This document shows, in pieces, positions 4,594 to 27,022 of a DNA stretch of 64,000 nucleotides; positions within the stretch are counted from its first letter, which is position 1; every line of letters starts with the position of its first letter. The notes under the pieces were generated by a model. It was given only the letters and a program-made list of their open reading frames with translations. It had not been told where the DNA came from and ran no database searches. Source of the stretch: a virus (lineage: Duplodnaviria; Caudoviricetes). The stretch covers positions 1-64,000 of the IMG/VR virus record IMGVR_UViG_3300014204_000172. One strand, 5' to 3'. Position numbers and translations under genes: made by a program.

Positions 4594-5610
4594 CTAGCTT
4601 ACACAATCAGCTAAATAGAATCCTAAATCATCGCTGGTTTTTTTCATATCAATGGAGATTAATCCCTCTTGATATGTTGCGTGAGTTCCAAACTCACCGT
4701 CACCCTGAGCTATGCTAATCCAATTATCGCCCATGAAGTTCCATGCGAAACAATAACCGGCAGAAGGTGTATCAATAGACGGTTCATTAGGAGCAAAAAC
4801 AGCCAGCATATCTTTAGGTCCGATGATACGACCCATGACCGCTGTTTGACCTTTTTTCGCTGAATTGTAAACCTGTTTAGCTACCATAATCTTATCTACT
4901 CCGAATAAAGCAGCTAAAGTAGTTTCGTTAACTGTGGCTGGTGAAGTGGTATTGCCGGAAGCGTGTTTGACTCGGTCCAATATGTCCGGGTGATCAATCA
5001 GGCATTCGTAAACATCTGCACCAAAACCAATTTTGTTAACTAAACGTCTACCAGAGATTTCGATTTGCTTCAAGGCGTATCTGATGGTTTTTACCGGATC
5101 GCCTAAAGATTCATCGAATCTCATAAAGGATGTTCCAGGCACAGCAGGACCAATGGCTAAACCATGCATATGGTTAGTCCAGTTGGCTACTCCCCAGAAT
5201 TTCTGCCCAAACGTGTAATCTAAAAAGAGATTGACTTGTTCGGCAATATATCTGGATCGCTGGACTTCCGGCTTAGCTGCCGAGTTCTTGAAATTGACAT
5301 TCTGTAACTGGTCCTGACCGCAAATGACCTGATTGACTTTACAGCTATAGGTATCATCCGATAAACCTAACTGTATAGGATCGGTTCTCCCATACATTGG
5401 CTTTTCGACCATATCTATTCTGCATAAGTCTTCTTGATTCCATTCGTAGTAGTAAGCGCTTTCCACGTCTACTGGAACGATAGGAAACATCTCACGTGCA
5501 ATATAAGGAAGACCAGTAAACCAGTTCATAGCTACGTTGCTTAAATACCGGTTCGGTACATAAGCTTTGCTAATTATCTGCATTTTTAATAATTCTGTTG
5601 TTAATTTCAT
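4594..5610 (-). CDS. Major capsid protein (HK97 fold, gpE-like)
   Basis: YLSNVAM..YIAREMFPIVPV, TLAALFGVDKIMV; 338 aa; position. Confidence 0.88.
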   Translation of the reverse strand: MKLTTELLKMQIISKAYVPNRYLSNVAMNWFTGLPYIAREMFPIVPVDVESAYYYEWNQEDLCRIDMVEKPMYGRTDPIQLGLSDDTYSCKVNQVICGQDQLQNVNFKNSAAKPEVQRSRYIAEQVNLFLDYTFGQKFWGVANWTNHMHGLAIGPAVPGTSFMRFDESLGDPVKTIRYALKQIEISGRRLVNKIGFGADVYECLIDHPDILDRVKHASGNTTSPATVNETTLAALFGVDKIMVAKQVYNSAKKGQTAVMGRIIGPKDMLAVFAPNEPSIDTPSAGYCFAWNFMGDNWISIAQGDGEFGTHATYQEGLISIDMKKTSDDLGFYLADCVS

Positions 5611-5628: not shown

Positions 5629-6039
5629 TTATACAAAGTGCGTGGTAAAGTTAACTGGTACGCCGATAAAATTGATCCATACAATGTCTCCATCTGCCCC
5701 GGCAGCTTGAAGAACCATAGCTGCTGCGTATTTTCCATTAGTAACCGCTTCAAATTTACCAGTTGCGGATACCTGAACAATAGCACCAACAGCAGCAATC
5801 TCATCAGCGACTGCTAAAACTCTACCGAATACACAAACTGTTACGTTACTACCGGAAGCTCCACCTTTGGTTAAAACTCCAATAGGCAATTCTCCCTGTG
5901 CACAAATAACAACTAGACCAGCATTCATTTTTACGAAATAACCCTCTTTTCCGGTTAAATCACCTGCTCCGCAAGGTAAGCAGAGTAATTGCTGGTTAGA
6001 ATTCCACTGTCCGATTTCGCCTCTTTTTACTAAAGCCAT
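5629..6039 (-). CDS. Capsid decoration/cement protein (DUF2190-like)
   Basis: Small Gly/Ala/Val-rich beta protein (GVL..G..V.V...G) directly upstream of capsid. Confidence 0.7.
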   Translation of the reverse strand: MALVKRGEIGQWNSNQQLLCLPCGAGDLTGKEGYFVKMNAGLVVICAQGELPIGVLTKGGASGSNVTVCVFGRVLAVADEIAAVGAIVQVSATGKFEAVTNGKYAAAMVLQAAGADGDIVWINFIGVPVNFTTHFV

Positions 6040-7188: not shown

Positions 7189-8145
7189 CTACTCGATGTA
7201 GGAATTACCAGCGTGTACGATGGTTCCTGCTCCGGTTTTGGTAAAGGATGCCGCTTTGTCGGTAGCTTCAAACATATTGTTTAATAAGTGGATACTACCT
7301 GTTGCATGGTTAGCGGTAGTCATGACACATTTGGTTAAGACTTCTCCTGTATTGGTTCCATCAATAACCCTGCATCTCTCCATGACTATATCGTGACCAT
7401 CTCCATCCATTTCTAAACCATACTTGCAAGATACGATCAAACAGTTGGAAATGTAAATATCGTCAGCTCCTCTGATGGTTGAATTAACAGCCATGACAGC
7501 CCCGGATTTACAACCTTTGAATACACAGGATGCAAATTCAATATTATTTGCTCCCTGTATATAAGCTCCGAATCCCATATCGTCACCATCTGCTTGTTTG
7601 GATAAATAACAATTAAGGAATTTGTTAAACGATCCGGTGAAATCGGTAGCGGTTGCTGATCCTAGATAGACAGCAGCTTTTGTATCTTTGTAGGTATAAA
7701 GAGATAAACCAACAAAAAGATTTTTACTTCCCGAGATTTTCAATAAATGGTCAGTTGCAGCATCCAAAACTCCTGCCGTTCCTGTACCAATTAAGATAAA
7801 ACCATCGGAAGTTCCTGGACCAATTACCAATAAATCATCAAAATCGATGACTATACCCGAAACTTCGTAGGATAAACCAGCTAAACAATAGATGGTATAT
7901 CCCTTCTTTAATGTAGCAGTGCTTAGTGCTCTTATAAAAGCGATAGCTTCTCTAAAAGTCTTATAAGCAGTGCTAATAGTTGTACCATCCCCTGATGCGG
8001 TTATGTTTGGATTTACAAAAAGAAACTTGCTAGAATCTCTTTGCTGTAATCCATTGATTTCTTGGTCATACCCATCATTGGAATGTATGTCACGATGTCC
8101 TTTATCGTAATAATCTGATCTGTTATCTTTTCTCATTCTCGTCAA
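7189..8145 (-). CDS. Right-handed beta-helix (pectate-lyase-like) protein; likely start ATG 8136
   Basis: FVNP..SGDGTT..AYKTF motif then periodic I.F.NC.I repeats. Confidence 0.65.
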   Translation of the reverse strand: MTRMRKDNRSDYYDKGHRDIHSNDGYDQEINGLQQRDSSKFLFVNPNITASGDGTTISTAYKTFREAIAFIRALSTATLKKGYTIYCLAGLSYEVSGIVIDFDDLLVIGPGTSDGFILIGTGTAGVLDAATDHLLKISGSKNLFVGLSLYTYKDTKAAVYLGSATATDFTGSFNKFLNCYLSKQADGDDMGFGAYIQGANNIEFASCVFKGCKSGAVMAVNSTIRGADDIYISNCLIVSCKYGLEMDGDGHDIVMERCRVIDGTNTGEVLTKCVMTTANHATGSIHLLNNMFEATDKAASFTKTGAGTIVHAGNSYIE

Positions 8146-8215: not shown

Positions 8216-9604
8216 TTAAGTATGTATATATTTAAAAAATGTCTTTACTATTGATTTTTCAGTTTCTTTTTTTTGTTCATTAACAATAGTTAAATGTATA
8301 TATTCGACGGTTCTTTTACCAGATTTAATCTCGCCCATGAATCCCCGATAATGATAGTTTTCTTTAATTCGATCAACTGCTGTTATTTTATATATATTAC
8401 CCCGACCCAATAAAACTTCTTTTTCTAAATCTCCAAAAGCTCCTATTTCATTGGTAATTATTCCAGCTTTAGTTCCTTTGGGAGCATCAATAACAAATAA
8501 TCGTTCTCCCTTATCCAAAAATTGAAAAGCTTTGTCTTTACTCAACGTGGTTGATGTATAGCCTAACTCAGTAAAAGTTTGTCCGATAGGATTCGCAGAA
8601 CTTAAAACTTTTTCTGCATCCGGGTTATAAGCAGCTCTGTAAAGCTTCTGATTTTCATATAAGGTAGAATCTTCCTGCAATCTTGATTTTTCTAAAGCTG
8701 TATCAATCGATTCGATTAATTTTTTATTTTTAGAATCAACTTTACCTTTTCTTAATTGTTCGTTAATTGATTTATAACTCTCGGATGTATAGCTATTTAA
8801 AGCATTTACTTCTTTTGTCGATAGGCGTTTAATCCAAGTTAATGGATGATAAGCAGTCAAAGATTTATCATTGCTACTACTCGTTTCTTTTGTTGATGTT
8901 TTTTCGTTAGTTGTATTGGATGAACTATTCGAACCTTCTGTAGAGCAAAACTGTCCTCCGTTAGATTGCCCTGCTTCTTCGTGACATTCATTGAATTTAA
9001 ACAATGAACCAAAAGTCTTTCCTATTTTTCTTTTAGCTACTTTATATAAAGTTTCATCTACGTTTGTTTCTTCTCTGGTAGCCATACCCTCAATGGAAAA
9101 ATCTTTTAATTCGCCATTCTTGATTCTATTCCAAATTGATTCATCTGTTATTTGGAATCCTCCCCACCATCCAATAGGAATTAAACCTTGCGGTATATTC
9201 ATGGCTATCTGTTTTTCTATAGTCCAGCACATGGATTCAATACATTTGCCGATTATCTTTTTGTTTGACTCATGCATGACTCCTGAATCTCGATACTTTA
9301 AAACATAGGTATAAGCCATTTTTTCTAGTTCTGATTCATCTATAGCATCTTGCTGGTGGTCAACAAGCTGTTTTAATACCCATTTTCCATTTTCTTGTTC
9401 CCAGTCTGCACTAACTAAAAACCATCCAAATACCTGTTTTTTATCTTCATAAGCTTTACTGATGGTAAATATTGATTTACTAACTGGTTTATCTTTTTTA
9501 TCTTTATCATTAGTTGTTTTTGGATTAATTCTCTTTAATTCTTTACCTCTTAACCATTGTCTATTTTCTATATCCATGTCTAAAGGTATTAATATTTTTG
9601 TCAT
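8216..9604 (-). CDS. XkdF-like prohead serine protease fused to a C-terminal VIP2-like ADP-ribosyltransferase
   Basis: N-half: KKQVFGW..VDHQQD..MHE..GWW.G..IKNGELKDFSIEG. C-half: LNSYT..YKSINEQLR, LYR, GYTSTT, EKEVLL (R-S-E). Confidence 0.85.
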   Translation of the reverse strand: MTKILIPLDMDIENRQWLRGKELKRINPKTTNDKDKKDKPVSKSIFTISKAYEDKKQVFGWFLVSADWEQENGKWVLKQLVDHQQDAIDESELEKMAYTYVLKYRDSGVMHESNKKIIGKCIESMCWTIEKQIAMNIPQGLIPIGWWGGFQITDESIWNRIKNGELKDFSIEGMATREETNVDETLYKVAKRKIGKTFGSLFKFNECHEEAGQSNGGQFCSTEGSNSSSNTTNEKTSTKETSSSNDKSLTAYHPLTWIKRLSTKEVNALNSYTSESYKSINEQLRKGKVDSKNKKLIESIDTALEKSRLQEDSTLYENQKLYRAAYNPDAEKVLSSANPIGQTFTELGYTSTTLSKDKAFQFLDKGERLFVIDAPKGTKAGIITNEIGAFGDLEKEVLLGRGNIYKITAVDRIKENYHYRGFMGEIKSGKRTVEYIHLTIVNEQKKETEKSIVKTFFKYIHT

Positions 9605-12004
9605 TTAAGATAATTCCCTCTTTAATTGGACTTCATCTTTACTTATTTTTAATGTATTATTTTTGCTTCCTACAATATATTCGTATTCTTCATCACCACC
9701 AAATAAGAAATCAGAAGTTCTTAAATAAGGCGTTGTTTCATGGTTAAGTAATATATCTTCCAAAGGTATTTCTTTAATGATTACAATTCCCTTCTTATTC
9801 GCGAATCTTTCTGCAACCCCAAGATCGCTAGTCCATGAAGAAACTGGATAGGTAGCTATTTCTATCTCATTTTCTTTTTTTAATAAATCTTTAATCTTAT
9901 TGGCATATTCACCTTGGATCCCACGATATAATTTAATTTTACCGTCAATTGCTCTGTCTTTTAAAATACGTTGCGTTTCCTGTACTTGTCCTAAAAAGCT
10001 ATTAATTGTTTCTTGGGAATAAAACTGGACTCTTTTCATATTCATATTAATATCGTACATCTTTTCATACCATTCTTTTTCTATTAATTCTTGCTTACAT
10101 CTATCAATAATAGTTTTTTCCCAGTTAGCCAATTCTTTTGCATGCCCTTCTTTATTGACTAAATCTTCTACTTGATTAATTTCCTCTAATAATGTTTTTT
10201 TTCTATCTTCCCATCTTGTCTGCATTTTAATATCAGCAGGACTTATTTCTCCTTTGTAGTAAGCTATTGCCATGGTTCTTAATGGATTTGGATCGCTAGG
10301 CATTGGTCCTTTATAATAAGCCATCATTTGTGCTAAGGAACCAGTTTCTTCTTCATTGGGAGCAGCCGATCTAAAACTACCTACTTCATATTTACTCTCA
10401 CTCAAATAGGAATACATATCATTAATTAATTGTTGCACTTCCGGGACTTCTTCTATAGTTCTTCCTATCCATTCATCTTTTCCAGACATAATCGTATTTT
10501 CTTTTAATTTATTTCCTTCAAATTCTGTACCAGTAAATATTGATAATGCATCTTTACCTTCTTTAATGGGAACTATTTCGGTAGATAAACCTCGACCTTC
10601 AACGGCTAATATTATTTTTTGATTGTATTCTTTTCTGTAATCTTCAAATCTTTCATTCTCCCTATCTATATGTCGTTTATAATAATCAATATTGAATGGT
10701 GCTTCTTTTTTTTCTTGATCTGTTCCATTCTTTAGTAATTCTTCCTGCTTTCTTATTTCTTCATTTGCATATTTAATTTGATTATCACGCCAATCCTTTT
10801 TGGATGTATAATCCCATGATTTTTCAAAGGGAAACAATTCTAATACTTTATTTCGACCCATCATGATTAATTGTTTTCCTTCTGATGTATGAGTTGTTTT
10901 TTTGGAATTATCGGATGTTTCTTTATTTGATGAGCCACTATTACTAGAATCTCCACTACAGAATTGACCACCATTACTTTGTCCTGCTTCTTCGTGGCAG
11001 GTGTTGAATTTGGATACATTTTCATTAGGCTGTAGGATTACTTTATAAATTTTACCTTCTGTTTCATCTATTTGATTAATATCTTTAATTGGTTTTCCTT
11101 TAATTTCTTTATCCATGGAAGTGTAATAGTCTTTTATATCATATTCTTGTATTTCCTTTAATTTAAATTCCTGACCACCTTTTATTAATATCTCTGAAAA
11201 AGAATCCTTACCAAAACTTGTTATAGGTATACTTTTCGTTACTCCTTGAGTTTCAAAAACTATTCTTACTTCGTTCTTTTTATCCGTATAACTTTCAGTA
11301 AATTCTTTAGCTTTTCCCCAATCAGTAGTCCAAGAAGATAAGCCATTCTGCCCTACTGGTTTATCGTTTAAAAGGCTTAAAATTAAATTCTTTCCATCAT
11401 CCTCTTCTAAATAAATTCCTCTAAATATTGGTATGTCCTGTTGAAAGATTACTCCTTTTTCAAATAGGCTATTTATAATTTCATCTTCTCTTTTTACTGT
11501 TTCGTATATTTCTTTGCTAGCCATGCTTACTGTTTCTTTTCCGTTATAAGTTGTTTTGTATGTATAATCTTTTGCTTCTATTGTTTTTTTATATAAATCA
11601 TAATTTCCATTGACTTGTTCATAAACTCTAATAGCTGAACAAAAATTGTAATCAGCCCAATCATTCATGGTCTTTGTTATTTCTTTCCATTGTTTATCTG
11701 TATATTTTTCTCCATGCGTTTCTAAAGCTTTTCTAAATTCATTTCTTTCTACATCATATTCTTTGCTATTGTTAAATTGGGCTTTAATATTTTTTGATGG
11801 TACATTCCGTCTAGGTAGACCATATTCAATTAATTTAGGAGATTTATCGTTTTTTAAATTTCCATTACTGCTATCTGAATCATCTGAACAGAATTTTCCG
11901 TCTTCTGGACTATGACATTCATTGAATTTAAAAATGAATAAATCATTTAAAGATTTTTTAAATGTTCTCGGTTTTTTTAAATATCTATCAAATGTTTTAA
12001 TCAT
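9605..12004 (-). CDS. Multidomain (polyvalent-type) protein with two ADP-ribosyltransferase-like domains
   Basis: Domain 1 IFRG/LSSWTT/FSEILI; domain 2 LYRG/VSSWTS/EEYEYIV; two KFNxCH..GxFCS leaders. Confidence 0.7.
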   Translation of the reverse strand: MIKTFDRYLKKPRTFKKSLNDLFIFKFNECHSPEDGKFCSDDSDSSNGNLKNDKSPKLIEYGLPRRNVPSKNIKAQFNNSKEYDVERNEFRKALETHGEKYTDKQWKEITKTMNDWADYNFCSAIRVYEQVNGNYDLYKKTIEAKDYTYKTTYNGKETVSMASKEIYETVKREDEIINSLFEKGVIFQQDIPIFRGIYLEEDDGKNLILSLLNDKPVGQNGLSSWTTDWGKAKEFTESYTDKKNEVRIVFETQGVTKSIPITSFGKDSFSEILIKGGQEFKLKEIQEYDIKDYYTSMDKEIKGKPIKDINQIDETEGKIYKVILQPNENVSKFNTCHEEAGQSNGGQFCSGDSSNSGSSNKETSDNSKKTTHTSEGKQLIMMGRNKVLELFPFEKSWDYTSKKDWRDNQIKYANEEIRKQEELLKNGTDQEKKEAPFNIDYYKRHIDRENERFEDYRKEYNQKIILAVEGRGLSTEIVPIKEGKDALSIFTGTEFEGNKLKENTIMSGKDEWIGRTIEEVPEVQQLINDMYSYLSESKYEVGSFRSAAPNEEETGSLAQMMAYYKGPMPSDPNPLRTMAIAYYKGEISPADIKMQTRWEDRKKTLLEEINQVEDLVNKEGHAKELANWEKTIIDRCKQELIEKEWYEKMYDINMNMKRVQFYSQETINSFLGQVQETQRILKDRAIDGKIKLYRGIQGEYANKIKDLLKKENEIEIATYPVSSWTSDLGVAERFANKKGIVIIKEIPLEDILLNHETTPYLRTSDFLFGGDEEYEYIVGSKNNTLKISKDEVQLKRELS

Positions 12005-12283: not shown

Positions 12284-13147
12284 TTATACCTCGTTGAATC
12301 CACATAAGCATCGACAATTTGGATGGCTCAACGAAGGAATAGTTATCATCCGTCCATCCGGGAGTACAAATAAATCATTTAAACCAATTCTTGTACCTTC
12401 CATTTCTCCGCAAATAGGGCATACCCTTTCATCTAAAGCAGTTAGCCATTCCTTCTCTAAATTACCAATTAAATTTTGTTTCTGTCCTTCTCTGACTGAA
12501 TACTCTGCGCCTGTATTGTAAGCATTCGCAAGTTCTGTTCTGGCTATGGTGTTAGCTCGTTGTCTGTGTTTTCCTTGGGCGTATCTGATAGTAAGATTTA
12601 ATGCTTTGTCTTTGTTGTAATTGTCTTTGATTAGTGATTCATAATAAGTCATTACTGACTGGCTCTGTTTATTGGTTAAACCGATAACCGGTCTGATTAA
12701 ATATTGTAATTGGTCAGGATGCATGGCTTTGTCTTGACTAATCGTAGAACCAATAATAGTTTTTAGTGCTTCTGTTTGCATACTCGTCATATCTCTGACT
12801 AATTGAACGCCTTTACTATCTACCCATTGTTTAGCACCTATCCAATCCTCAATCCAATTACGTCTGAATCCCTGTTGCGTATTGGTCATGGCTTGGCTAA
12901 TCGTCTGAGCTAATAAAGGTTGAAAATGAGTTACTACTAGCTGAGAGTAATTCATTCTCCATTGATTGACTATTTTTTCAGCGATGGTTCCAACTAAAAA
13001 AGCCTGTGCTATTTCTTTATAGCTAATTTCATTTTGCTGTAAGTTCCAGAAGGTAGTTAATAATCGAACCAGTTTTGGTTCTTTACTATCCAAGTAATTT
13101 ATCATTCTTGAATGTAAAGCTAAATTTCGTTGAGAAATGCGAGGCAT
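12284..13147 (-). CDS. Minor head morphogenesis protein (MuF / SPP1 gp7 family), short form without a toxin extension
   Basis: RANTIARTEL, EWLTALDERVCPIC, HPNCRC motifs. Confidence 0.92.
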   Translation of the reverse strand: MPRISQRNLALHSRMINYLDSKEPKLVRLLTTFWNLQQNEISYKEIAQAFLVGTIAEKIVNQWRMNYSQLVVTHFQPLLAQTISQAMTNTQQGFRRNWIEDWIGAKQWVDSKGVQLVRDMTSMQTEALKTIIGSTISQDKAMHPDQLQYLIRPVIGLTNKQSQSVMTYYESLIKDNYNKDKALNLTIRYAQGKHRQRANTIARTELANAYNTGAEYSVREGQKQNLIGNLEKEWLTALDERVCPICGEMEGTRIGLNDLFVLPDGRMITIPSLSHPNCRCLCGFNEV

Positions 13148-14689
13148 TTAGATTCTCAAATAGCTACCGAATGTTGAGTATCTTTTCTTTATTTCCGGCT
13201 GTTTTTGATTTGCTTTTGGATTGTTTTTATCTTTTAAGGATTGAAAGAATTTAGCATTATCATTGGTTTTTTGATTTAGTTGCTGTTCTTGTAGTTTAGC
13301 TTTATTGTTTAAATCATTAATCGCTGTCTGCTGTTCTTCTTTCTGTTGAGCTACCTGCTGTTCGTATGTTTCATCTTCTTTAGGTAATCCTGAAATCATC
13401 TTCGCCCATTGTTCCAATTTAGGACCGGGAATAATAACCCCGGAAGCAATCATCGAAGAGATCCAGCTAGCCAATTCATTTAAATCAGGAACCTCAACAT
13501 CTCCATGGATAATTTTAGGGTAACCAGTAATACCAGTAAAATGTCTTTCATTTAACTTGAATAAATCCGGTACAGCTTGGCTATTCATGGTCTGACAAAT
13601 GATATCTAAATAAGCACCTATAGCTACTCCGAATGTATTAGTTTTGGATGATGCTAATGCATAAGAGCCTACCTGCTGGTGACCTAAAAGGATCATATCA
13701 GCAAATCCATTCATGGCTATTCTCGTATCATATCTCTGAATGATTTTATCAGTATCAATTTGTTTAGAGCCACCAGAACTCATTAAAGAAAGAACCCATC
13801 CAAAAGGTATAACGATTCCCTCTACCTTATCTCGTCTGATATTTTGTACAATTGACTTAGCGTTATTTAAAAAAGATACCATTTTAGGATCTTTGGTATC
13901 CCAGATATTTGTACCTTCCGGGGCTTGTAATAATGGTAAACCAGCTAAATCTCGTTCAATACCGATTCCTTCAATAATCTTTAGGTTTTTTTTGTAGTAA
14001 TAACTTTCATAAGCTCCACGCCAAATAGAACGACCCTCTGGATTGTCTTTGATGGATGTAGTACGAAAATGAATAGCTTTGCTTAATGGTATTGTTTTTA
14101 ATTCATAACTAGGCGGTGGCATTTGTGTCATTCCCAATAATTCATCGGAAGACTCATCGATAACCCATTCATATAAGGAATCCTGACTACGTATAGGTAG
14201 TTTTCTCCAACCGATTAATCCATCATCAAATTTAGATCTCATTCGTAAATCAGGATGATCGCCTCTTCTTAGTTTGTATACTTTTTCGTGATAACTAAAT
14301 CCGTAATCTAAGAAGGATAAAGCCTCAGCAATAAAATCAATGAATGTTTTATTTAAATCATCCATGCAATCTTTAAGGAATTGTGCTGCTTCCATATCTA
14401 TTGGATCTTCACTAGCTGGTTCAACATCGAATGTAGCTTGTCTAATCATCAGTTCAATTAAGCGATCGACAGCAAAGACAACATCGTCATTATTGGTCAT
14501 TTCCTTATAAGTTCTGACACCTTTACGCCCTTTTAGTTCTTCTAGGAATTCTTCAAAGAATACTCCGGCGTATCTAAATTGACCTACTGCTCCTAATTCC
14601 TGATAAACACTATAGCGTTCTCTTTCATCTTTAGCTTCGGTAGCATTCATAGGATTTAAAGTAGCGTTACTCGTCGTATCGTCTGGCAT
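13148..14689 (-). CDS. Portal protein (DUF935/Mu gp29-like)
   Basis: FFEEFLEELKG..YKEM, GFSYHEKVY, NPEGRSIWRGAY, IGIERDLAGLP. Confidence 0.9.
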   Translation of the reverse strand: MPDDTTSNATLNPMNATEAKDERERYSVYQELGAVGQFRYAGVFFEEFLEELKGRKGVRTYKEMTNNDDVVFAVDRLIELMIRQATFDVEPASEDPIDMEAAQFLKDCMDDLNKTFIDFIAEALSFLDYGFSYHEKVYKLRRGDHPDLRMRSKFDDGLIGWRKLPIRSQDSLYEWVIDESSDELLGMTQMPPPSYELKTIPLSKAIHFRTTSIKDNPEGRSIWRGAYESYYYKKNLKIIEGIGIERDLAGLPLLQAPEGTNIWDTKDPKMVSFLNNAKSIVQNIRRDKVEGIVIPFGWVLSLMSSGGSKQIDTDKIIQRYDTRIAMNGFADMILLGHQQVGSYALASSKTNTFGVAIGAYLDIICQTMNSQAVPDLFKLNERHFTGITGYPKIIHGDVEVPDLNELASWISSMIASGVIIPGPKLEQWAKMISGLPKEDETYEQQVAQQKEEQQTAINDLNNKAKLQEQQLNQKTNDNAKFFQSLKDKNNPKANQKQPEIKKRYSTFGSYLRI

Positions 14690-14692
14690 ATT

Positions 14693-16225
14693 TTACCCAC
14701 CTTTCCAATATGAATTCTTTTCTATGGCTGTAGGCATCTCTTCATCACTCTTTTCTGGTTTCATGCAATATATTATACCTAGGCTCATAGCATCCACAAT
14801 ATCTTTTAATATCATTTTAGGGAAACCTAATAATTGATTTTTAAAATCTTCTACCCATGGTTGATGTAAAGAAGGATCAGGTAAAAGAATATTGCCGGAT
14901 AACCAATAACCAGTAGTAGCCCTAGCTCTTTCCTCTTTGCTTCCCTTAGGTTTAACTAAAATAATCCCCGGAATTGTTTTATGTAAGGTATCTGAAACGG
15001 ATTGAGCAGCAGCAGCATCTTCTACAATCTTTTTTCTGACTTCAATATACTTGTCGTGAATACTCCTGAATTCATTACAAATATCGGTGAATGCCATTTT
15101 ACGATGAACCAAGTCAATGATATATACCATCATTCCATCCTGAGCTGCAATAATACAAGCACATTCCGCCGTATTTTCTCCCTTTTTAAATGGCATATCC
15201 CAGAAAGAGAACCATTCAGCAGATTCAGGAACAGCATCGAAATAATGGGTAAACATTTCCTGTTTGAATATGATACCTTCAGCCGGTGTCGGATTCTGTT
15301 GGAATTGAGCTGAAAAGTATTGAGGACCCATGTTGACCCACATCTTGTCTAATGTCTTTTGGCTTAATCGAATAGGATCCAATAAATCATCTTTTTCTCT
15401 TATCTTATACGTCTTACTTATAGGAAAATAGATGGTTTGTCTTTCCTCAGCTTTAGCAGGTAAGATTAATTTATCCCATCCTAACTCATTGATAAAATGG
15501 TTTGCAGCATCCGCCTCATGTAAGCGTTGCATAATACATATCATGTTTCCGGTTTCCTGATCGTTTAATCGTGTTGCCAAAGTGTTTTTAAAAAATGTTA
15601 TAACATTCTCTCTGACTGTTTCTGAAAATGCTTCATCCGGTTTCTGTGGATCATCAATAATAATACAATCTCCACCTTCTCCTGTTAACATACCACCAAT
15701 GGATGTAGCAAACATAAATCCTGAATCTAAGTTTTCAAACATTTCTTTCTGGTTTGTATCATGGCTCAGTATAACTTTCCAGTAGTTCTGGTACCATTTG
15801 GAATTAATTAACTTTCTAGCGATAACATTATGTTTGGTTGATAGTCTATAGCTATAAGAAACTTTGATAAATCGTTTCCATGGTTTAGTAGTCCAAACCC
15901 ATGAAGGATAAGCAACAGCTACCGATAACGATTTAGTGGATCGAGGCGGTACATTAATAACTAAATTTTGTATCTGTCCTCGTTCAATGGCTGTTAAGTA
16001 TTCACAGATAGCATCTAAATGCCAGTTCCATATAAAGCTTCTTTTCGATTCGTAATTACCCCATGATGCCTTTAGAAATTCAGCTAAGTTTCTTTCGTAA
16101 ACTGCTTTTTCTAAACAATAATCATGAAGTTTTGGATTTTTTGGCTTTTTCGTTAATTCGTTGGTAAGTAAGTAATTCGTCATCGGTGAGGTTTGAGAAA
16201 TCATAGACCTCCTCTGAATCTTCAT
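14693..16225 (-). CDS. terL: Terminase large subunit (exact start uncertain: 16225, 16204 or 16183)
   Basis: WNWHLDAIC, NVPPRSTKS (Walker A), IIIDDP (Walker B), QQNPTP, nuclease WD..K and KDIVDAMS. Confidence 0.93.
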   Translation of the reverse strand: MKIQRRSMISQTSPMTNYLLTNELTKKPKNPKLHDYCLEKAVYERNLAEFLKASWGNYESKRSFIWNWHLDAICEYLTAIERGQIQNLVINVPPRSTKSLSVAVAYPSWVWTTKPWKRFIKVSYSYRLSTKHNVIARKLINSKWYQNYWKVILSHDTNQKEMFENLDSGFMFATSIGGMLTGEGGDCIIIDDPQKPDEAFSETVRENVITFFKNTLATRLNDQETGNMICIMQRLHEADAANHFINELGWDKLILPAKAEERQTIYFPISKTYKIREKDDLLDPIRLSQKTLDKMWVNMGPQYFSAQFQQNPTPAEGIIFKQEMFTHYFDAVPESAEWFSFWDMPFKKGENTAECACIIAAQDGMMVYIIDLVHRKMAFTDICNEFRSIHDKYIEVRKKIVEDAAAAQSVSDTLHKTIPGIILVKPKGSKEERARATTGYWLSGNILLPDPSLHQPWVEDFKNQLLGFPKMILKDIVDAMSLGIIYCMKPEKSDEEMPTAIEKNSYWKGG

Positions 16226-25803: not shown

Positions 25804-26001
25804 TTAATCCTCCGTAATTCTTTTCCAATTAACTTTGATAATGTTAGATTTTACTAATGAATTAACAACTAATCTTGCCATCTGGTTTTCAACATCTTCT
25901 TTGGTGCATAAATCATCAATTTTTAAATTTATTTGTATTGAATGTAATCTAACTGTTTCAATCTTTATTTCATATTGAATCGGGTCTTTTTTAATCGTCA
26001 T
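25804..26001 (-). CDS. Hypothetical protein
   Basis: Tiles on - strand. Confidence 0.5.
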   Translation of the reverse strand: MTIKKDPIQYEIKIETVRLHSIQINLKIDDLCTKEDVENQMARLVVNSLVKSNIIKVNWKRITED

Positions 26002-27022
26002 TATGCATATACCTAAATTTTAATTGATTAAGTTTTTCCGCTGTGTTAATGATTACTTCTTTTAATTCAATTCTATTTATCCAATCCGTAGGAAGTTTAT
26101 CTGAACCTAAATAAGCTCCTAAGATTTGTCCAGTAATGGATCCTGTACTATCTGAATCTCCTGAATGGTTAACTGCTACTCTTAATGCTTGTTTAAAATT
26201 ATGTTGATATTTTAACGAACAATAAATAGCAATTGCCAATGCTTCTTCGGCTATCCATCCCTGACCAATAAATTCTATAATTTCCTGATCTGTATGCTTT
26301 CTAGTTTGTTCCGCAAATTTAATTGCCTGGAATGCTTTGTAGGTAGTAGAGTTATTTAGAGTATTGCTTACTCTTTTTGCTGATTCTAATATAGCTACTT
26401 TTAAGTCATAACCCATCAAAAGTAAACTAATTAAATAAGATAAAAATCCAGCCGGGATATATGCTTTTTCTGAACCATGGGTAATAGCTGCTATATGACA
26501 TCCAGCTTCAAAGGATTCATCATGTCTATAAACCAATCCTACCGGGGCGATTCTCATTAAACCACCACAACCAGAACTATCATTAATCGGTTCTCTTACT
26601 GTTCCTAACTTATTACTTAATAAAGATTTAATACAAGTTTCTCCCGGTGATCTAATTTTCCATAATTCTTGAATACTACTTAAAAAACTATCTTTGTTAG
26701 TTGATTTATTTGGATAGCCTTGCGTTGCTAACCATTGTAAATAAGATTGATAAATAAAATTAATGGTTTCTTCTCGGTTATCTCTTATATTTTTATCAGC
26801 TATAATTAATCCCTCGGCTGTAAATAAAGTCATTTGCGTATCGTCAGAAATTAATGCTTTTTTGGTTTTAAGATCTATTTCTGGGTCCTGTATTCCATAA
26901 TATCCATAATGGGTCTGAATCGCATTAAAACTTAAAAATTCTATAGGATAGCCTAATGCATCACCTAAAGCTCCGCCAAGTAAGCAACCTGTGATTTTAT
27001 TTCTCATCTCTTTCCCGTCCAT
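25991..27022 (-). CDS. ADP-ribosylglycohydrolase (ARH/DraG family)
   Basis: GCLLGGALGDALG, SDDTQMT, SGCGGLMR, THG, GDSDSTGSITG. Confidence 0.95.
   Translation of the reverse strand: MDGKEMRNKITGCLLGGALGDALGYPIEFLSFNAIQTHYGYYGIQDPEIDLKTKKALISDDTQMTLFTAEGLIIADKNIRDNREETINFIYQSYLQWLATQGYPNKSTNKDSFLSSIQELWKIRSPGETCIKSLLSNKLGTVREPINDSSGCGGLMRIAPVGLVYRHDESFEAGCHIAAITHGSEKAYIPAGFLSYLISLLLMGYDLKVAILESAKRVSNTLNNSTTYKAFQAIKFAEQTRKHTDQEIIEFIGQGWIAEEALAIAIYCSLKYQHNFKQALRVAVNHSGDSDSTGSITGQILGAYLGSDKLPTDWINRIELKEVIINTAEKLNQLKFRYMHNDD

Follow-up and report, generated by a model that had tools for sequence, protein, structure and literature searches.

A phage XkdF-type head protease fused to an ADP-ribosyltransferase through a conserved junction, a possible carrier of injected enzymes

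Phage heads have been described as carriers of enzymes in several settings, and T4 Alt, an arginine-specific ADP-ribosyltransferase (ART) that travels in the head and enters the host by injection, together with head-fused ARTs, sets the precedent for packaged ARTs (PMC9503650). Iyer, Burroughs, Anand, de Souza and Aravind (2017, PMC5512222) defined phage polyvalent proteins, polypeptides of 2-15 domains; they noted ARTs as the commonest modifying domain and an assemblin-like peptidase, placed 'always at the C termini', to which they ascribed the presumed processing of these proteins. In MuF polymorphic toxins, a swappable C-terminal toxin, an ART in 14% of cases, is attached to a head-assembly protein (Jamet et al. 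2017, PMC5576092), and a Nudix enzyme has been found fused to a capsid-processing peptidase, for which head packaging and injection were argued by analogy with T4 Alt (Iyer et al. 2022, PMC9503650, section 3.5.2). Here, we analyze a window of 64,000 nucleotides (positions 1 to 64,000 of the viral IMG/VR record IMGVR_UViG_3300014204_000172, which is linear, 73,126 bp long and ~84% complete according to CheckV), in which one open reading frame (ORF) of 462 amino acids (aa) joins an XkdF-type prohead protease to an ART through a junction leader and a disordered linker.

The gene shares features with each of these systems and differs from each of them. Like the polyvalent proteins, it places unrelated enzymes and a prohead-type peptidase on one head-module polypeptide that is predicted to be packaged, processed and injected, and with its protease and its ART it lies at the lower limit of the definition of that class (at least two unrelated enzymatic domains, encoded alongside virion or packaging genes). 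Unlike the published rule, however, its peptidase is N-terminal, and its ART is of the Alt/VIP2 R-S-ExE kind instead of the polyvalent H-Y-D 'ART-PolyVal', in a minimal two-domain form. The carrier logic is the same as in the Nudix case, there for another enzyme of the NAD/ADP-ribose network, whereas, unlike in MuF toxins and in MuF- or portal-fused ARTs, the protease is the carrier here and MuF is a separate gene. The likeness to T4 is that an ART of the Alt kind (R-S-ExE) would be brought into the host from the head, and that T4 internal proteins bear an N-terminal tag that is cut by gp21, whose fold XkdF resembles. In T4, by contrast, Alt is separate from the protease, and the T4 and junction tags are unrelated in sequence; the consensus site of the T4 prohead protease is cut behind a Glu, whereas the conserved residue here is Lys. 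The ART fold and the R-S-ExE motif are likewise those of the Listeria Lmo0066/Lmo0067 pair, VIP2, iota Ia, C2-I, C3 and Certhrax (Z 16-18, 22-28% identity), and, as in the Listeria pair, the phage also encodes an ADP-ribosylglycohydrolase (ARH) related to Lmo0067; in contrast to those toxins, a secretion signal, a binding component and a neighboring immunity gene are all missing, and the ART is embedded in a phage head protein. The general theme is published, and the fusion is anticipated there in general terms (PMC5512222, PMC9503650). In full-text searches of the literature we found no paper that describes an XkdF-ART fusion or the junction motif: the carriers named for ARTs in PMC9503650 are MuF and portal, and we found no statement in it of an ART fused to a capsid-processing peptidase, while in PMC5512222 the word 'linker' is absent and the few mentions of cleavage describe no junction motif.

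Domains of the fusion protein

The C-terminal half of the 462-aa protein is an ART with intact catalytic residues. Residues 257-423 matched PF03496 (ADPrib_exo_Tox) far above the cut-off (E 1.6e-24, 86.8 bits versus 23.4), searches of PDB sequences returned Vip2 and Lmo0066, and a weak PHROG match led to Alt-like ARTs (phrog_802, E 3.8e-6). The predicted structure models as an ART (Foldseek E 2e-11), with VIA-align scores of Z 17.9 to Listeria Lmo0066 (8za7_B) and 17.2 to VIP2 (1qs1_A), followed by an iota-like toxin and by C2-I, Certhrax and C3 at Z 16-17. The motif set is complete (R323, S351-T-T and E394-K-E396). Although the HMMER alignment to Vip2 placed the catalytic Arg on an upstream L-Y-E, we rejected this candidate and assigned R323, because in P0004 and P0005, two close homologues, it is K-L-Y-R-A-A that is conserved, whereas L-Y-E is not. 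The E-x-E motif alone suggests Arg as the acceptor residue.

Upstream of the ART lies the XkdF (Peptidase_S78_2) domain, which matched PF14550 with E 8.9e-15 and 55.3 bits against a cut-off of 24 (58.5 bits on DNA). His111 (9272-9274) and Ser170 in F-S-I-E-G (9095-9097) are present and are strictly or almost strictly conserved in the family alignments (A1-A5), which makes them a candidate catalytic pair; E123-S124, D82 and D86 are likewise conserved in the family. Because a profile of the domain yielded chance beta-lactamase matches only when run against PDB sequences (E 0.1 or worse), we turned to fold comparison. T4 gp21 (5jbl_A) was the top match in both models, the full-length protein and the domain alone (Z 7.8, rmsd 2.4 over 109 aa, and Z 7.9, rmsd 2.6 over 104 aa), while the next unrelated rows stood at Z 4.4 and 5.6 and the varicella-zoster virus (VZV) protease at Z 5.4 and 4.7, lending moderate support to a gp21/assemblin-like fold. 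XkdF is the sole recognizable prohead protease of the 73-kb record, in which the other prohead-protease families PF04586, PF03420 and PF00574 gave no match, the PF03420 result carrying little weight as this family gave zero matches in every control genome too.

In the AlphaFold2 model, built from an alignment of 76 homologues, two confident domains (residues 50-175 and 257-445; predicted local confidence (pLDDT) of the ART mostly 75-93) are linked by residues 186-255 with pLDDT <50. An earlier note, made from the letters of this DNA alone, had proposed an XkdF-like protease domain at ~9060-9480, a short leader with a Ser-rich linker and a complete VIP2/C3-type ART at the C-terminus. All three hold: the Pfam match and the gp21-like model place the protease where it was expected, the leader is found in three copies in the window, the linker behind it in this protein is disordered in the model, and the ART motifs lie exactly at the positions given for them (L-Y-R 8636-8644, S-T-T 8546-8554, E-K-E 8417-8425).

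Junction copies and cargo in relatives

The junction leader that joins the two domains occurs in three copies in the window and nowhere else in it, one in the 462-aa ORF and two in the 799-aa ORF that precedes it, and a Ser-rich linker follows each copy. A custom profile, iterated from the ART of the 462-aa protein over fetched homologues, detected an ART behind each of the two copies in the 799-aa ORF, neither of which was recognized in the Pfam and PF18760 searches. The head module hence encodes three ARTs, each behind a junction leader, of which one alone is fused to the protease. The two ORFs lie in one frame and together resemble one polyvalent protein of the order ART-ART-XkdF-ART that has been split, or whose two parts are translationally coupled; as an ATG directly follows the TAA (9602-9607) with G-A-G-G ~11 nucleotides upstream, reinitiation or coupling is a simpler reading than read-through. 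The earlier note had regarded MuF as the short, toxin-free form and the protease as the carrier. The first point stands, since MuF is a separate gene of 287 aa that matched PF04233 alone. The idea of the protease as carrier is supported in that the closest phage has a standalone XkdF in the same slot, no further prohead-protease family turned up in the record, and XkdF is fused to many effector families in relatives; the packaging, release by cutting and injection that the note also proposed are part of the model below. The payload, however, was understated, as the 799-aa ORF adds two ARTs behind the same leader. The phage also encodes the ARH, whose matches among PDB sequences are DraG, Lmo0067 (8za7_A, E 3.7e-14) and the hydrolase of an ART toxin/immunity pair (6dre/6drh). 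Lmo0067 is the immunity partner of Lmo0066, the Listeria ART that matches the present one best in structure, and the phage ARH is a candidate eraser of, or immunity partner for, the ARTs.

The closest deposited phage, MT835491.1 from human faeces, has a portal that is 53% identical and the same gene order (terminase-like ORF, portal, MuF, XkdF, scaffold, decoration, capsid). Its XkdF is a standalone protein of 156 aa in the same slot, and it has no ART, no 799-aa ORF and no beta-helix gene. Because the same module thus contains a standalone XkdF, we conclude that the ART was added later onto an ordinary head protease. Cargo is also exchanged at the junction: a relative of the fusion (P0002) is 71% identical through protease and junction, whereupon homology stops at residue 225 and an unrelated cargo follows. 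Residues 225-409 of that protein have no Pfam match and contain an H-N-H-P-G motif reminiscent of RadC/JAB-type domains. A relative of the 799-aa ORF (P0158) lacks the first ART cassette. Both the 462-aa protein and P0002 end in a truncated junction copy, and we read both tails as remnants of cassette exchange between junction copies; the one in the 462-aa protein might instead be a docking tail. A general need for such a C-terminal half-motif in cargo-bearing proteases was considered and rejected, as most XkdF-motif-ART proteins stop right after the ART.

We searched 1.84 billion representatives exhaustively with HMMER and, from 3,610 matches, surveyed the best 150, mostly XkdF proteins of 130-2,992 aa. 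Among the 148 top representatives, Pfam recognized XkdF in 138, the PF03496 ART in 29, NUDIX in 22, 2H phosphoesterase in 21, ART-PolyVal in 12, Zeta toxin in 10, glutamine deamidase in 6 and an Acb1-like domain in 5, besides others. The earlier note had called for a survey of XkdF-ART fusions, and with our own profiles 35 of the 142 XkdF proteins carried an R-S-E ART, most commonly in the order XkdF, junction, ART, a share that is inflated because the survey was seeded with the whole fusion; among IMG/VR loci seeded with the junction motif, the share was 4/30. Of the 142 homologues, 62 have the peptidase at the N-terminus, 53 in an internal position and 19 at the C-terminus; another 8, which are short, fall into both terminal groups. 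Three of the relatives (P0020, P0133 and P0143) are textbook polyvalent proteins with 4-11 junction copies each. The largest, P0020 (2,992 aa), has 11 copies of the Cys-Cys type that separate ART-PolyVal, KptA-like, topoisomerase IB, PF03496 ART and metallopeptidase-like modules. In deposited phages the picture is different: a tblastn search of 50,697 deposited phage records with the whole protein returned a single match, confined to the protease half, and tblastn with the relative P0003 showed XkdF or ART separately in isolates, never fused, so that at tblastn sensitivity we found no cultured phage with an XkdF-ART fusion. A search for related loci in IMG/VR with the 462-aa protein alone found nothing. 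Judging from the surveyed proteins, the XkdF-ART architecture is common in uncultured phages.

The junction was present in 121 of the 142 XkdF proteins, in one to five copies and typically ~15 residues past the protease core, and 36 copies stood at the extreme N-terminus of surveyed proteins. Its logo over 204 instances reads (V)-A-K-T-F-x-E-I-L-K-F-N-P-Y-H-D-x-x-G-R-F-[A/T/S]-S, with Lys conserved at 98%, Phe at 99%, Arg at 85% and Pro at 75-78%; upon re-anchoring the pattern without Asn or His, these two were conserved at 95% and 92%. A Cys after the Pro position covaried with a Cys after the Phe (13 of 14 cases), as would be expected of a contact within a hairpin. A search of IMG/VR with the back-translated junction consensus returned 100 stretches with 176 motif ORFs, and as just 20 of these also hold XkdF, the tag resides mostly on separate genes. 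Standalone leader-plus-ART genes are common (17 ORFs). The motif is nevertheless tied to phages that encode XkdF: PF14550 was found in 26 of 32 motif-bearing IMG/VR records of at least 25 kb (14 of the 17 that are at least 90% complete), compared to 0 of 37 control records of the same size class drawn by a random 14-mer. A MuF-ART fusion (L003) in a Streptococcus phage region without an annotated protease showed no F-N-P-x-H-D junction motif. This association is our main argument that the junction may work with the XkdF protease.

Delivery model and its alternatives

We propose, with a probability of roughly 0.6, that the XkdF head-maturation protease of this phage, with its junction, linker and catalytically complete R-S-ExE ART, acts as the vehicle that brings the ART into the virion. 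The protease half would join the prohead during assembly, as is usual for such proteases, taking the ART inside with it, whereupon the junction would be cut, most likely by XkdF itself, directly behind the near-invariant Lys in front of F-N-x-x-H. The ART of ~25 kDa would then stay enclosed in the capsid until its ejection together with the DNA, and it would ADP-ribosylate a host protein, probably on Arg, early in infection, as T4 Alt does. For the two ARTs of the 799-aa ORF, the junction tag would direct loading in trans, and the phage ARH would reverse or contain the modification. A wider proposal, which we put forward tentatively and at slightly less than even odds, is that the junction (~25 residues), made up of an amphipathic A-K-T-F-x-E-I-L helix, the Lys and an F-N-P-x-H-D-x-x-G-R-F hairpin with its covarying Cys-Cys variant, is a portable load-and-cut label specific to XkdF-protease phages, such that any enzyme behind it, in cis or in trans, would be encapsidated, cut after the Lys and injected, while recombination between copies would shuffle the cassettes; the three ARTs and the ARH of this phage would then be virion-delivered writers with a genome-encoded eraser.

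If this is true, a head-maturation protease has a second role as a disposable carrier, and arbitrary enzymes need no more than a short conserved peptide to be addressed into the capsid. This would explain the varied first-strike payloads of many uncultured phages (ARTs, NUDIX, 2H/Acb1-like phosphodiesterases, kinases); payloads could then be predicted from sequence, and proteins could be loaded into phage capsids in the laboratory by means of a simple tag. The locus is a compact test case, with one protease, one junction, one well-understood and easily assayed enzyme, two trans cargo domains and a matching hydrolase.

Several observations weigh against delivery by the protease. In addition to the inflated ART share of the survey, the gp21 fold match is moderate (Z ~8), and Pfam itself labels the proteolytic activity of XkdF only 'putative'. 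The scaffold and capsid proteins have no junction copy, so that the specificity of the junction as a protease site is putative, and AlphaFold does not dock the junction, modeled at pLDDT <50, onto the protease. Three complete motif-bearing phages (G005, G014 and G021) have no PF14550 match, either because their protease is too divergent to be detected or because the tag works with another protease. In the literature, we found no virion proteomics, cleavage or activity data for any XkdF-cargo protein. The three phages are IMG/VR records of 93-102 kb (those behind the loci L010, L036 and L059) with several junction-motif ORFs each.

Release of the ART might not need XkdF at all, if the Asn-Pro-x-His of the junction cleaved itself by Asn cyclization like the N-P-T-H of FlhB/YscU/EscU. 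Such self-cutting is established in type III secretion system switch proteins (PMC3189125, PMC2615192), the high conservation of Asn (95%) and His (92%) with independent anchors and of Pro (75%) is what it would predict, and the covarying Cys pair hints at a tight hairpin or turn. The Pro, however, is missing from all three copies in the window (N-E-C-H and N-T-C-H), which therefore lack the N-P-T-H sequence, the motif is tied to XkdF-encoding phages although a self-cleaving element would not require this, and a near-invariant Lys, two positions ahead of the Asn, is more in keeping with a protease site. We hence regard autocatalysis as a real but unlikely rival for the cutting step. An artefact of assembly or sequencing, that is, a chimera or a lost stop codon that merged separate protease and ART genes, is conceivable for a metagenome-derived contig given how common standalone leader-plus-ART genes are, but it is hardly credible here: a protein that is 80% identical (P0008) runs on through leader, linker and ART, the frame of the 462-aa ORF is open and unbroken throughout, and at least 35 independent clusters at 50% identity combine XkdF and an R-S-E ART in a single ORF.

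The purpose of the ART may also differ from the Alt-like takeover of the host that we favor. It could be a weapon akin to polymorphic toxins, directed at cells without the phage ARH (in abortive or superinfecting encounters, or among lysogen competitors), with the ARH as immunity. The best structural match of the ART, at Z 17.9, belongs to a Listeria ART-ARH effector-immunity pair, the phage ARH matches the immunity protein of that same pair, and an action of this kind has been proposed for MuF toxins (PMC5576092). Yet the ARH lies ~16 kb away among early/middle genes, whereas immunity genes usually adjoin the toxin, and the presence of three different ARTs suggests several host targets; no integrase or sign of lysogeny turned up, although no search aimed at them was made. 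We rate this use as improbable to the same degree as autocatalysis. Less probable again is that the ART is not delivered but acts within the cell that produces the phage, or during assembly on head proteins or DNA of the phage itself, with the fusion ensuring only co-expression or co-localization with the prohead. In its favor, ARTs of the head module might defend the packaging apparatus against immune processes (PMC9503650), and the ejection that we propose is itself deduced. Delivery with the DNA is nonetheless the better fit to the diversity of the enzymes behind the junction (NUDIX, 2H/Acb1-like, Zeta kinase, topoisomerase IB), which are likely used in a newly infected cell, and T4 Alt provides the precedent for injection.

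Layout of the head module

All genes of the window lie on the minus strand, with the XkdF gene between MuF and scaffold; the features are collected in Table 1.

Table 1. Features of the fusion gene, the head module and the ARH gene (positions in the window)
Feature	Position	Strand	Evidence or details
462-aa ORF: XkdF protease, junction leader, Ser/Thr linker, ART, C-terminal leader remnant	8216-9604	-	ORF call, Pfam, AlphaFold2
XkdF-type (Peptidase_S78_2) prohead protease domain, residues 48-179	9068-9463	-	Pfam PF14550
Junction leader, residues 189-221	8942-9040	-	Amphipathic half V-A-K...K-T-F..L-F, invariant Lys203, F-N-x-C-H...G-Q-F-C-S hairpin (Cys-Cys variant)
Ser/Thr/Asn-rich disordered linker, residues 222-250	8855-8941	-	pLDDT <50 over residues 186-255
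VIP2/C3-type R-S-ExE ART domain, residues 251-443	8276-8854	-	Pfam, PDB sequence matches, Foldseek, VIA-align
ART catalytic residues	R323 8636-8638; S351 8552-8554; E394 8423-8425; E396 8417-8419	-	
C-terminal tail S-I-V-K-T-F-F-K-Y-I-H-T, like a shortened leader copy	8219-8254	-	Conserved in 80%-identical P0008
799-aa ORF, two leader-plus-ART cassettes	9605-12004	-	
Leader copy, N-terminus of 799-aa ORF	11891-11926	-	
ART domain 1 of 799-aa ORF, residues 176-287: I-F-R-G, S-S-W-T, F-S-E (single Glu)	11144-11479	-	Custom iterated ART profile, 50.8 bits
Internal leader copy of 799-aa ORF	10961-11008	-	
ART domain 2 of 799-aa ORF, residues 628-789: L-Y-R-G, S-S-W-T, E-Y-E	9638-10123	-	Custom iterated ART profile, 53.8 bits
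510-aa ORF in terminase position	14693-16225	-	No Pfam match
Portal protein, Mu-type	13148-14689	-	PF06074, phrog_113
Short MuF head-morphogenesis protein, 287 aa, without toxin extension	12284-13147	-	PF04233 only, E 1.2e-12
Beta-helix protein (right-handed, 318 aa, PF13229) between protease and scaffold	7189-8145	-	
Scaffold-like protein, 381 aa	6040-7185	-	phrog_17741; orthologue follows protease in MT835491.1
Decoration/cement protein	5629-6039	-	
Major capsid protein	4594-5610	-	phrog_1005, E 7e-56
ADP-ribosylglycohydrolase (ARH/DraG family)	25991-27022	-	PF03747, E 3.7e-65

The C-terminus of the portal (13148-13270) ends in a tail, ...S-T-F-G-S-Y-L-R-I after A-K-F-F-Q-S-L-K, that bears a loose likeness to the junction's first half and is missing from the portal of MT835491.1; the resemblance may be due to chance. 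The scaffold-like protein, whose family phrog_17741 has no assigned function, shares a conserved N-terminal stretch, L-K-I-T...V-D-x-V-D-x-G-A-N, with the scaffold-like protein of a second phage (L002:7583-8824). The beta-helix gene probably starts at an ATG near 8136, behind G-G-A-G-G-A, and not at the listed TTG.

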